This document shows, piece after piece, positions 29,758-43,184 of a stretch of DNA of 64,000 nt (positions are counted from its first letter, which is position 1; every line of letters starts with the position of its first letter). The notes beneath the pieces were generated by a model. It saw only the letters and a list, made by a program, of their open reading frames with translations. It had not been told where the DNA came from and made no database searches. Source of the stretch: Flaccisagitta enflata. Its lineage: Eukaryota. Location: positions 42,718,001-42,782,000 of the forward strand of contig OZ231126.1 of the NCBI GenBank assembly GCA_965153355.1. Direction: 5' to 3'. Position numbers and translations under genes: made by a program.

Positions 29758-30889
29758 AAACAAAAACAATAAAAATAAAAAAAAACAAAGCAAAAAAACA
29801 AAAAACAAAAAAAAAACAAGATGCGTCTTTTCATTAATTGATGAATCAGATAAAAGAAACGATTAAAATTGTTTTCTTTCAAGACATTTTTAAAGACTTT
29901 TAAAAAAAAACTTTAATTCTAAACCAAACGTTGAAGCCCTGCAATTTGGAGGCGTCAGAGAGATCTTTTAGGAAGGGATTATGAAATGGGTAATGTTTTC
30001 ATTCAAACTACAGGGGGACCCCGCAATAACGGGCTCACTTTTAAAGGTTCCCCATTTATAAAGGTCATCATTTTAAGGTCCCAAATGACAGCTTCTTTTG
30101 TGATTTCACCTCTTTATTAAGGTAAACCTAAGATAAAGGTGAGAAATCTTCAGTCCCAATGGGACCGATTAGGTGGAGTCCTACTGTAATACCATTTCTA
30201 AGTGAAATTAGATAGCAATTCTACATTGGAGCCAAATAGAATACATTCAAAGAGCCTTGGAATGGTCTAGAATTTTGTTTAGAGATTTATTGGCACAGTC
30301 ATTCATTCAAATGTGCGTCTTTTTAGTCGCGTGCTACGCGACTCTATAAGCCACTTTGTCGGTCGGTCCGTCGGTCGGTCGGTCGGTCGGTCGGTCGGTC
30401 CGTAACAAAGTCGTTTAAAGGGTGTTTTAAACGTTTCTCAATCATTTAAAAGGGTTTTCAGGCAATTCTATAAGCCATATTTAGGTCTGTCCATCCGTCT
30501 GTCTGTTTGTCGGTCCGTCTGTTCGTCGGTCGGTCCGTCGGTCCGTCACAAAGTCGTTTTTAAGGTGTTTTGAACATTTCAGAGTCATTTCAAAGGGTTT
30601 TCAGACAATTCTGTAAGTCACTTTTAGGATTGTCCATCTGTCGGTCTGTCTGTTGGTCCATTTGTCGGTCCGTCTGTCAGTCTGTCATAAAATTGTCTGT
30701 CTGTCTGTCTGTCTGTCTGTCATAAAATTGTTTTTAAGGCTTGCGGCTTTAAGGCAAAAGTAATTATTAAAAAATTTCACTCATCTTTCAAGTGTTAAAA
30801 AAATAGACAAGTTCTGTTAAATTGTTTTCTATTTCTGTACATAACAATGAGGTTATACTAACAGGAACAACACTTTTAAAGACAAACAT

Positions 30890-31898
30890 TTAAAATAACG
30901 GAACAATACAAGGAGCAGCATGGTCAGTGTAATAGGGCCAATGATGATGAATGCTGTAATTGTTGCTTGAATTAACAAACGCATAATCTAGTACACTTCC
31001 GCTTTCATGAGTAGAATCTCTTACTAATTGTCGAAAACCAATTGAAAGTATTGAATTAATGATAGGGTGGTTATTGTTTTGATTGAAGTCAATGTTAAAG
31101 TCTCCGACAATAAAACAATTATCACAGTGACTTATCAATTGCATCAAATTTTGCAAAAAAGTTGATGTATCAGCTCCTTGAGATCGATAAACGTTGATAA
31201 CATGACAATGGTTACTTGAAAATTTTGTCATTTGAAAAAGTTTATGATTGACTTCACCAGTAAGTTTAAATCTTCTTTTATAATAGCTTGCTATGCCTTT
31301 TCCATTTCCATGATTTGTGAGATGAAGATTAAAGCCATCTATGTTCAAGTGATCATTCACATAACTATCATTGCACCAAGTTTCTTGAACACAGATCATG
31401 CTACATTTTTTAAATTTGAAATCATTTTGAAGATCATTAATTTGTTTAGGTAACGAACGAATATTCACACTGACAATAAAAGTTAATGTTCTCAAAGTCA
31501 TTTCAAGTTCATTAGTTGAGATAGATTGAAGCCTTGACAATTCTTGCATAGCTAAGGGGGAAGGGAATATCTTATTTCTTGGAACTTTTTCGATGATAAA
31601 TAATTGACTTATAGCTTGAACACGACTAAGCATGACATAGGCTTGAGCGGGTTCCCTTACAGATTTCAGATCTAAAACAAGAGAGTCCGGTTTAGAAACA
31701 GTAGCTCCCTGCATTTTATGAGCTGTACAAGCAAAACTTAGTCTGAGAGGAAATTGCAGAGCAGTAAGCATTTGACTATTGGTCTGTTTTTTTGACATAC
31801 TAAAATTGAATTCTATTTTTTCTATGGGAGTTACGGGGATACCTGGATACATGTCTTGAAGGAAAGAAAAGTTTTTTTCTCATATTCTTACCAACTTT
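30890..31898 (-). pseudogene. Helentron polyprotein C-terminal part: Pif1 helicase late motifs and APE (Exo-endo-phos) endonuclease
   Basis: QFPLRLSFACTAHKMQGAT, QAYVMLSRV; then SVNIRSL, ICVQETW, INVYRS, IVGDFN, VLDY, TDH. One extra base in the T7 run at 31872-31878. Confidence 0.92.
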
Positions 31899-32049
31899 TT
31901 AGTCGCGGACTCGCGACTCTAGAACTTGCCGCGTCGGTCGGTCGGTCGGTCGGTCGGTCGGTCGGTAACCAAAACAAAATGCGAGCGTTTTCTTGCTATT
32001 CCGCTCCTGCCCACCCGTCCGCGACTTACGGGGAGTGTATACGGCCTTG
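31899..32049 (+). mobile_element. HINE copy inserted in the Helentron helicase
   Basis: TTAGTCGCGGACTCGCGACT...(GGTC)n...ACGGCCTTG; removal restores VHFNNE-KVGKNMR. Confidence 0.92.
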
Positions 32050-41168: not shown

Positions 41169-41597
41169 TTTAAAGCTTGATCTCATTAAAATGAGACAGC
41201 AATAAAAGAAAGAAATTTTATCAAGATTGTATGAGTAGTTTTTTACATTTTCGTAGATATTGATGGGGTACACAGTTAAAGAAGAAAGTTTAGTTCAGGG
41301 AGAATTATGATAGAATATTGGAGATGTATTAGAATATTGGAGAAGATTTTTTTTAATTTTTGAAGAGTTGAATAGAAATGTTGGAGAGATGTGATAAGCA
41401 TGTTGGAATTGTGGTGAATGAACGAAAATCAGAGTGCTCTTCCATATAAGCTGAGACGGAGCCAGTTCAAGCCAGTTACAGCCAGTTACAGCAGGTTCAT
41501 GCCAAAGAGCAAAAAACATGCGGAAAAATTGACCACTGCTTTTCACACCTGCCACATGGAATCTCGATCAGAGAGATGGGGTGGAAGGGGGGGGTAA

Positions 41598-42310
41598 GGA
41601 GAGAGAGAAAAGAGAAAGAGAGAGAGAGAGAGAGAGAGAGAGAGAGAGAGAGAGAGAGAGAGAGAGAGAGAGAGAGAGAGAGAGAGAGAGAAGAGAGAGA
41701 GAGATTTTGACTGCTATGCTGGATAGAAAGATGAGGTTTCCGATTTTAAAGGATTTTAGAGGTAGAAGATTTTTGAGAGAGGTGAGAGAGAAGAGGGGGG
41801 AAAGAAGAGAGAGAGAGAGAGAGAAGAGAGAGAAGAGGAGAGAGAGAGGAGAAGAGAGAGAGAGAGAAAGAGAGAGGACGAAGCGGAGAGAGAAAAGAAA
41901 AGAGAGGGCTTCCTTTGCTAGAGACTCACCATTGAGATTAAGGTATGAAAGAGAATAAAATGGGGTTGACCGTTGTTTTAAGCAGAGAAAATCATCATCA
42001 AAAAAAAAGGGAGAGAAAGAGAGAGAGAGAGAGAGAGAGAGAGAGAGAGAGAGAGAGAGAGAGAGAGAGAGAGAGAGAGAGAGAGAGAGAGAGAGAGAGA
42101 GAGAGAGAGAGAGAGAGAGAGAGAGAGAGAGAGAGAGAGAGAGAGAGAGAGAGACACACACACACACACACACACACACACACACACACACACACACACA
42201 CACACACACACACACACACACACACACACACACACATACACACATACACACACAAACACACACACACACACACACACAAAGAGAGATAGAGACAGAGAGA
42301 GAGTCAGAGA
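41598..42310. repeat. (GA)n/(CA)n microsatellite block inside the Helentron upstream non-coding region
   Basis: Seen directly. Confidence 0.9.
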
Positions 42311-43184
42311 AAATTCTTCCATTGGCAGTAGAGACAGAGTCAGCTCGAGCCAGTTACAGCCAGTTTAAGCTAGATTATAATAAAGTGCTAAAAATAGACA
42401 AAGACAAACTTGACCGCTTCTTTTAAACTGGTCATTTTGAGAGGTGAAAGAGTTTGCGCACCTCCCAGCTGCAAAATATCCAAAATCGACTGGGGGGGGG
42501 AGAGAAAAGAGAGAAAGTAGTCATGCCTCCAATCGATCATTTTCAGGAAAAATGGAATGTTTTTTGATCATGCCGCCCCTCGCCAAAAGAAACTCACCAT
42601 GGCAACAATTTCAGATGAAATACAAGTGGAAGGGGGGGGGGCGGAGAAACTGAGCAAGATTGTTTTACTCAGGGCAAACGAATGCATGGACCATCATTAC
42701 CAGCCAATTTCAGGAAAAACGTTATTCCTTTGACAATGCCGCCATCACAACAATGCCACCATCACAACAATTTTCAGATGAAAAAGAAATGGTGGAAAAG
42801 AGGGGGCGGGAATTATTTCACTCACAGCTAGTTATCATCAAAATAAATGAACGAGAGAGAGAGAGAGAGAGAGAGAGAGAGAGAGAGAGAGAGAGAGAGA
42901 GAGAGAGAGAGAGAGAGAGAGAGAGAGAGAGAGAGAGACTGACAGACAGACAGACATACAGAAAGTCCGTCCGTGTATATGCAATTTCTATTTCCGTCTT
43001 TCTGTCTTTTATTTTCTGAAAGTACCGATGCACGCGACTTAGGTCTAATGACCTTGTTTATACGCGTGGTGCAGTCCTTGACCATAGCATGTTAGGTTTT
43101 GATTTTAGCATGTTAGTTGTTGCGTTAGTTGTTGCGTTAGTTGTAAATTGATACAAAAATATGTTTCATTGCACATGTACATAC

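Follow-up and report, generated by a model that had tools for sequence, protein, structure and literature searches.

A probable Helentron family in Flaccisagitta enflata with a separate SGNH esterase gene and a USP-fused transposase

Can a single rolling-circle transposon carry, beside its own replication machinery, both a deubiquitinase and an esterase of the type known from retrotransposons? A 12.7 kb element on the minus strand of Flaccisagitta enflata contig OZ231126.1 raises this question; it runs from ~43057 to ~30320 of the 64,000-nt stretch analysed here (the window, to which all positions refer). Between 41294 and 30890, the minus strand has four long open frames in head-to-tail order. 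The first is a complete open reading frame (ORF1) and the last three are a single gene, ORF2 (ATG at 39549), with three breaks. We read the locus, with a probability of about 0.78, as a dead, nearly complete autonomous Helentron of the HLE2 group, one copy of a family abundant in its host, with a USP fusion and a separate esterase ORF1 as family modules. A first-pass annotation from the sequence had proposed a near-intact Helentron with all of these parts on one strand at 30323–43056; the Pfam domains, the ORF1 fold and the termini bear this out, and its boundaries are right to within 1–3 bases (3′ end at ~30320, 5′ end at 43057).

ORF2 has a length of roughly 2,800 codons, excluding a HINE (a short non-coding partner element) nested within it. 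Its first part (the second open frame, 39672..34897) matches the Pfam families UCH (E 2.5e-22, 80.1 bits against a cut-off of 23.9) and Helitron_like_N (E 6.6e-16); the third frame (34896..32026) matches PIF1 (E 8.1e-24) and Pif1_2B, and the fourth (31879..30890) Exo_endo_phos (E 1.1e-9, 38.9 bits against 24.5). These families and DUF6570 all exceed the curated Pfam cut-offs, in agreement with the USP, HUH Rep, Pif1 and AP endonuclease (APE) calls that had been made on one strand. The gene opens with the USP domain (38725..39549; UCH at 39504–38725), which keeps a Cys box (NACFTN), a QQD box, a His box (SGHYYS) and DDN. A low-complexity part follows (36822..38371), made of a poly-Q tract (38371–37924) and eleven 69-bp (23-aa) Lys/Glu-rich repeats (37574–36822). 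The stretch from about 800 to DUF6570, directly after the repeats, is conserved and aligns with relatives; DUF6570 itself lies at 36148..36540 (E 1e-8, 36.2 bits against 24.3). The HUH Rep (Helitron_like_N at 35089..35583; motif RGAPHAHGVLW) has both its H-x-H and Y..Y motifs, the H-x-H columns being nearly invariant in 20 relatives and residues Y233, Y237 and K240 invariant. UCH and Rep thus share one uninterrupted frame of 1591 codons. The remainder of Rep and the Pif1-like helicase occupy 32051..34896 (PIF1 33027–32494, 2B domain 32220–32104), with a Walker A motif GGAGSGKS and a Tyr motif YISDYYSKD, and the gene finishes with the helicase end and the AP endonuclease (30890..31879; Exo_endo_phos 31471–30968; stop codon 30892–30890).

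The three breaks in ORF2, which the first-pass annotation had listed as lesions to be repaired, are real. They can be followed against P0115, the closest relative (56% identity in Rep-helicase; 55% over 328 aa in the endonuclease). An in-frame premature TAA (34897..34899) falls within Rep, where P0115 reads through. A 154-bp HINE in the same orientation (31897..32050) is nested further on; P0115 aligns on both of its flanks, and the comparison reveals no target-site duplication. A 5′ ACAAGG..AGTCGCG, a hairpin (AGTCGCGAGTCCGCGACT) and an A-run of its own are all present in this HINE, as is a (CCGA)n tract. Directly 3′ of it, read against the P0115 alignment, the frame changes in a homopolymer A-run (31872..31880). 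We considered a nonsense codon here, as tblastn draws it, and dropped this, because the P0115-matching frame enters the A-run and then shifts. With ORF2 broken by the stop, the nested HINE and the frame change, this copy is unable to encode the transposase. No interruption falls in ORF1 or in the opening 1,550 codons of ORF2.

The element is bounded by structured termini on both sides. The 3′ end is a hairpin, AGTCGCGTAGCACGCGACT (30343..30325), followed by an A-run that closes the element at ~30320; on the coding strand a (GACC)n tract leads into the hairpin, a perfect AGTCGCG-TAGCA-CGCGACT, and AAAAA comes last (hairpin and A-run, 30320..30343). The last 60–90 bp align with 11 other sites in the window, all alignments beginning at 30316–30320, and the hairpin sequence (≤3 mismatches) is present at 5 places in the window where none is expected. 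Folded as DNA, the 46-nt terminal stretch (30315–30360, minus strand) reaches −10.4 kcal/mol (z −3.86), with 0 of 200 shuffles as stable. The 5′ terminus (43057..43030) consists of ACAAGG, 12 bases and AGTCGCGTGC, a 10-nt inverted repeat of the 3′-terminal GCACGCGACT that occurs 21 times in the window (0.03 expected). This build is common to six HINE 5′ ends, those at 19879, 50076, 48609, 47399 and 63344 and that of the nested HINE at 32050; an A stands directly before ACAAGG or ATAAGG in all seven copies, Helentron included. The motif AGTCGCG is found 40 times in the window (1.88 expected), and within 30320–43057 solely at the two ends and in the nested HINE; a terminal-motif scan located no second terminus pair between 32026 and 43033. 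One pair of termini therefore encloses ORF1 together with the USP, Rep, helicase and endonuclease parts, which supports the earlier proposal that one rolling-circle element holds both the SGNH ORF and the USP–Rep–Pif1–APE ORF, as does the recurrence in HINEs of both of the structured ends that had been noticed.

The window is rich in short non-coding HINEs that share the 5′ ACAAGG..AGTCGCGTGC, the (GTCY)n tract and the 3′ hairpin. Those with shared Helentron termini lie at 17379–17546, 19879–20087, 48609–48458 (minus strand), 50076–50257 and 63344–63907, and further HINE-type 3′ ends near 20897, 21057, 26936, 45530, 57865 and 59541. The hairpin of HINE 63344–63907 is identical to that of the Helentron, with 89% identity over the last 89 bp. 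Exactly AAAAAG follows CGCGACT in 7 of the 11 ends read (HINEs and Helentron, for example 30320–30324), so the A-run seems to be part of the element. The 3′ end carries A4–5, and the flanks read A on the strand with the palindrome at its 3′ side. Inside the termini, microsatellites of the types (CT)n, (GT)n and (GA)n abound in the 5′ non-coding leader (41187..43029), which matches no other part of the window, one internal 94-bp repeat excepted. A 143-bp tandem repeat of 2.1 copies lies in the 3′ non-coding region (30344..30889), as do (GACC/GACA)n tracts, whose complement reads (GTCY)n.

Nothing interrupts the ORF1 frame (41294..39615, minus strand), with the intact gene at 39615..41186 and its stop codon at 39617–39615; a spacer of 65 nt (39550..39614) separates this stop from the ORF2 ATG. 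Translation from the first ATG gives a protein of 523 aa, and from a family-conserved ATG at 41168 one of 517 aa; it is differentiated into a heptad-rich coiled coil (~41081–40812), a Pro/Ser-rich linker and a 170-residue SGNH domain (~40133–39624) with GDS, TNN and DGxH (DGIH) motifs. Pfam has no match to it, even at E ≤ 1. Its AlphaFold2 (AF2) model has a predicted local distance difference test (pLDDT) score of 81, and Foldseek returns 93 PDB matches at E ≤ 1e-3, the rows listed being almost all SGNH/GDSL hydrolases. Aligned to 1yzf with VIA-align, the C-terminal domain gives Z 17.3 and a root-mean-square deviation (rmsd) of 2.5 Å over 163 residues. Judged by this model, the C-terminal domain is an SGNH hydrolase fold with intact catalytic residues, so that a call once made from motifs now has a predicted fold behind it. 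The nearest ESM Atlas clusters to ORF1 are eukaryotic SGNH proteins, which we take as a lead only.

Relatives of ORF1 share its plan. Six homologues (439–517 aa) have an esterase domain 54–87% identical to that of ORF1 and a linker that diverges. A profile search of 1.84 billion representatives yields 110 ORF1-like clusters at 50% identity (longest ≤635 aa), with the esterase domain C-terminal wherever the cluster protein is long enough. Of 40 clusters scanned with Pfam, 1 scores above and 5 below the cut-off for the GDSL profiles (Lipase_GDSL_2, Lipase_GDSL), and several give weak coiled-coil matches. Across 55 aligned family members, 17–81% identical to ORF1, residues S33, N91, N142, D170 and H173 are invariant; the oxyanion-hole block II has no invariant Gly at that place. 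In metagenomes, the esterase alignment hit 69 pattern stretches, and no relative was among them.

The sequence layout of ORF1 (coiled coil, linker, esterase) matches that of the ORF1p esterases of CR1/L2, RTEX and Penelope-like elements, in which a coiled coil and a linker precede a C-terminal SGNH esterase (PMC3905857). The zebrafish member, ZfL2-1 ORF1p, is an active esterase that binds acidic phospholipids (PMC3905857; PDB 4c1a, 4c1b), with His191 and Ser228 given as transposon-specific residues (PMC3905857). By spacing alone, ORF1 has no His 4 residues before the block III Asn; a Ser in the motif LESPP, ~36 residues after that Asn, is present in many family members and is Cys in ORF1. A PDB sequence search with the esterase profiles produced coiled-coil noise and a weak PAF-AH-like match (2hsj, E 0.52), and 4c1b is absent among the 50 rows listed by Foldseek or VIA-align, which says nothing either way. 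Of the earlier description of ORF1 as an esterase like that of a long interspersed nuclear element (LINE) ORF1, the part that is supported is the layout, with its variable linker and C-terminal SGNH domain; as to kinship, sequence profiles do not reach 4c1b.

Is the pairing of ORF1 with a USP domain peculiar to this locus? We aligned public sequencing runs to 38400–41590 only, divided into 30 bins. Two host DNA runs (X1 and X2) contribute 727 and 691 short contigs, respectively, with 30 of 30 bins covered; by identity, the X1 contigs fall into 97 (≥99%), 191 (95–99%), 250 (90–95%) and 189 (<90%). Summed word depths over the region run from hundreds to thousands, up to 21 distinct contigs bear one variant at a single position, and the leader part (41289–41590) is likewise at high depth in the host DNA runs. 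The junction is covered too: a diverged 220-nt contig of depth 162 bridges 39472–39706, with 78 nt in ORF2 and 89 nt in ORF1, and further contigs from X1, X2 and a marine metagenome have small indels inside the spacer (39590–39614). High depth over ORF1, spacer, USP and 300 nt upstream indicates one abundant, old and diverse repeat family, and hundreds of diverged contigs over ORF1, junction and USP make their arrangement a high-copy family feature rather than an accident of this locus. Since USP and Rep share a frame here, the ORF1–USP module would belong to the Helentron family. The possibility that other copies end before the SGNH/USP region, raised at the outset as one that would undo the proposal, is contradicted by these contigs.

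Small shares of 38400–41590 also turn up in marine and seawater metagenomes (X3–X13, from 7 studies); in X3, 213 contigs cover 25 of 30 bins. The host, its kin or the transposon family is present in marine plankton samples.

Searches with the Rep-helicase part found 98 long relatives, all ≤56% identical and with a Rep+PIF1(+EN) architecture; the endonuclease (EN) piece matches at least 41 of them. Thirteen of the 98 carry OTU according to a precomputed Pfam list, with weak OTU matches in two more by hmmscan, and six have a VTD domain. One relative, P0128, has the same order as ORF2: UCH, a Lys/Glu-rich stretch, DUF6570, Rep, PIF1 and APE. It is 42% identical in Rep-helicase and 41% in the endonuclease, and its UCH domain aligns with that of ORF2 at 25% identity over 320 aa (E 3e-9). 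Lys/Glu-rich stretches occupy the same place in P0122, P0124, P0128, P0131, P0132 and P0134; the charged spacer between USP and DUF6570 may, from these alignments, be a conserved feature. In a FastTree phylogeny of 74 rows, the Helentron groups with P0115–P0119 with good support, that group is sister (support 90) to the one holding P0128, and both UCH bearers fall inside a single 21-row clade (support 90).

That the closest Rep-helicase relatives truly do without a USP domain was considered and dropped: little of their contigs lies outside the ORFs (one has 1911 aa on 5899 nt), hence their N-termini may be cut, and many of the 98 are probably cut at contig ends. The USP region has 0 matches among proteins of 853–2715 aa, a range that an intact ORF2 would exceed. 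A scan of viral contigs with Rep-helicase gave 10 loci, all helicase-only (residues 624–931) and not Helentrons. The nearest ESM Atlas clusters to the USP domain (38560–39549, minus strand) are compact UCH proteins from giant viruses (Nucleocytoviricota; 0.95), again a lead only.

Several observations weigh against reading the locus as a Helentron family with two such modules. ORF1, USP, Rep-helicase-endonuclease and both termini are seen together in this copy only, and we infer the linkage of ORF1–USP to Rep in other copies. Some contigs cease matching at 39552 and 39677, the spacer edges, where some family members may differ. A host polyA RNA run gives no sign of expression: only 2 of 12,162,974 reads (~6% of the run) fall on 38400–41590, both partial and <90% alike. 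UCH is listed for 1 of the 98 long relatives (P0128) in the precomputed Pfam list, which has none for the five closest (P0115–P0119), and hmmscan of P0118 and P0119 agrees. Nor is there an esterase ORF or a like USP domain in 80 metagenome loci with Rep-helicase relatives (24–48% identical), of which ~18 hold at least 3 kb upstream, all of these ≤34% identical (positive control E 2.5e-66). Esterase profiles built from 7 and 55 sequences reach neither 4c1b nor any other SGNH structure significantly, and descent from a LINE ORF1 is therefore not established. On the strand with the palindrome 3′, the flanks here read A where the literature describes T for Helentrons (PMC4067079).

Could ORF1 then be a passenger, part of a CR1/L2-like LINE or else a host gene for an esterase, that one Helentron sub-lineage captured and amplified and that plays no part in its life cycle? 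Helitron-type elements often capture foreign sequence (PMC11417382; PMC4021074), the ORF1p layout is that of a LINE protein (PMC3905857), a LINE reverse transcriptase lies in the same window, and all 80 related metagenome loci are without an esterase. A dead passenger is expected to decay, however, and ORF1 is intact in a copy whose ORF2 has three lesions. Its catalytic residues stay invariant across the 55 sequences while the linker diverges freely, its homologues hold their length at 439–517 aa, and it keeps a fixed place 65 nt before ORF2, over a junction that diverged copies also cover. We regard a passenger as unlikely.

A different objection is that the high copy number was measured for 38400–41590 only. 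ORF1 and USP might constitute some other abundant mobile element, or a non-autonomous derivative, joined to Rep-helicase-endonuclease here alone by nesting or recombination; a USP domain with no relative among proteins of 853–2715 aa, and closest Rep-helicase relatives that show no UCH, would suit such a history. Yet USP and Rep sit in one open frame with no terminal motif between them, the conserved stretch before DUF6570 resumes directly after the repeats in alignment with relatives, P0128 independently has UCH fused to Rep-helicase-APE, and no second pair of termini exists between 32026 and 43033, which together make a join of this kind very improbable. Least credible is that the adjacency is an assembly artefact, or that a LINE fragment and a Helentron are neighbours by chance. 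Repeats and microsatellites crowd the region, conditions that favour misjoins, but the junction is covered by short-read contigs obtained independently in two DNA runs and in a marine metagenome, and the nearest reverse transcriptase is 7 kb off and on the other strand. LINE insertions lose their 5′ part, through target-primed reverse transcription, and so an ORF1-only LINE fragment facing a transposase start 65 nt away is not expected. The preferred reading remains a dead Helentron whose family carries ORF1 and the USP fusion.

How far does this element depart from those already described? Like other Helentrons and HLE2 elements it has a Rep-Pif1 transposase, a C-terminal AP endonuclease and DUF6570 (PMC4067079; PMC11417382), the last an HLE2 (Helentron/Helitron2) marker in the HELIANO survey (PMC11417382). 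Helentrons and HINEs are described as having a subterminal inverted repeat and a 3′ palindrome (PMC4067079). A further Helentron trait is insertion at a TT dinucleotide without target-site duplication; the A flanks here mirror the described T flanks in strand sense. The present element agrees in its 5′ subterminal inverted repeat, short GC-rich 3′ palindrome, 3′ tandem repeats and (GTCY)n, and in having many short partners with shared termini, one of them nested in this copy (PMC4067079). It differs in that the hairpin stands directly before the terminal A4–5 run and in the unusual length of ORF2.

Deubiquitinases have precedents at this place. HELIANO, which reported UCH in Helentron-type elements in 2024, counts it among 20 domains stably carried by Helitron-like elements, almost exclusive to HLE2 and enriched in subgroups c and d (mostly lungfish and axolotl), with EN almost exclusive to subgroup b (PMC11417382). 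As in the HELIANO elements, Pfam UCH (PF00443) is found here upstream of Rep-helicase; HELIANO places UCH among 17 domains ‘encoded in different ORFs’, whereas in our element, as in P0128, it lies in the Rep-helicase ORF and co-occurs with EN (PMC11417382). Zebrafish Helentrons encode active VTD deubiquitinases, with OTU beside or instead of them (PMC9741609). The shared principle is a thiol deubiquitinase N-terminal to Rep-helicase-EN, a place where relatives of our element carry OTU or VTD; the fold here is that of a USP, and activity is shown for the VTDs only (PMC9741609).

An SGNH gene near Helitrons is likewise on record. The teleost gene texim (2014), a multi-intron SGNH gene related to CR1 esterases, is found 5′ of Helitron coding regions (PMC4021074) and was proposed to aid transposition, by analogy with those esterases (PMC4021074); its authors saw no association of this kind outside fish, with amphioxus, sea urchin and Oikopleura named as lacking it (PMC4021074). 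In both cases an SGNH esterase gene precedes a Helitron-type coding region, in several copies (PMC4021074). However, texim is split by several introns, and its Helitron is up to 3 kb away or inside the last of these introns (PMC4021074), whereas ORF1 is intronless, begins with a coiled coil, sits 65 nt from ORF2 and is within the termini; the two are set apart here by description. With LINE ORF1p esterases the element shares a first ORF with a conserved catalytic triad, followed by a long ORF2 with an AP endonuclease (PMC3905857). It is unlike them in that ORF2 encodes a rolling-circle transposase, with no RVT domain in the element, that profiles give no significant match to 4c1b, and that at the expected spacing no ‘transposon-specific’ His is evident.

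Each cargo type alone therefore has a published precedent in Helitron-type elements. The terms esterase, lipase and SGNH are absent from the HELIANO text and Table S11 (PMC11417382), and a provisional literature search, covering few subscription journals and no Repbase, did not find an intronless ORF1p-like esterase within Helentron termini or one accompanied by a fused USP. Provisionally, then, it is the combination that is new in print: an intronless ORF1p-like esterase 65 nt upstream of an in-frame UCH–Rep–helicase–EN ORF. The suggestion of an undescribed lineage holds for this combination and its layout and falls short for the components, as UCH (PMC11417382) and the SGNH gene texim (PMC4021074) had already been described, at least in outline, in Helitron-type elements.

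By family resemblance, the HUH Rep would nick one strand at the element end, and the Pif1-like helicase would peel off the nicked strand up to the 3′ hairpin, which would be the stop mark. A circularised copy would then insert at an A/T-rich site, perhaps with the C-terminal AP endonuclease helping by target nicking, and the same transposase would also mobilise the short HINEs that share its termini. The N-terminal USP, fused in frame, most likely removes ubiquitin so that the transposase, or host factors, can escape degradation; a protective role of this kind has been proposed where other Helentrons carry VTD and OTU deubiquitinases (PMC9741609). ORF1p would be a self-associating coiled coil bearing a catalytically intact SGNH esterase, and by analogy its targets are most likely lipids, membranes or acetyl esters, at the stage when the element enters the germ line or gains access to the nucleus; because the element moves as DNA, its role would not be RNA packaging. 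We hold it about evenly balanced whether this is a Helentron lineage with a LINE-like two-ORF plan, namely an ORF1p with a working esterase, 65 nt and a giant USP–Rep–Pif1–AP endonuclease ORF, in which ORF1p and the endonuclease are modules shared with CR1-like retrotransposons.

LINE ORF1 esterases have a solved structure and a measured activity, and their role is not known. An esterase kept under constraint in a rolling-circle DNA transposon argues for a role not tied to an RNA intermediate; membranes, lipid signals, access to the nucleus or germ line, and transfer from host to host are candidates. If the proposed two-ORF plan is true, the esterase step is unrelated to RNA packaging, and the family would be a natural experiment on transposon-esterase function. 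With the USP domain, the N-terminal position in Helentron transposases would be occupied by three deubiquitinase classes, the other two being OTU and VTD, strengthening the view that Helentrons need to counter ubiquitination, whichever enzyme they use. As the esterase has no Pfam match, Pfam-based surveys of Helitron cargo miss it.

Elsewhere in the window, a LINE reverse transcriptase (RVT_1, E 2.2e-35) is encoded on the plus strand at 50234–51610, together with 49179–50109; no esterase-type ORF1 was found beside it. HINE 50076–50257 appears to interrupt the LINE reading direction just upstream of 50234–51610. An open frame at 53991–54887 (plus strand) has a BTB/POZ domain (E 1e-16) and is probably a host exon, and the G+C content of the window is highest at 50–56 kb.

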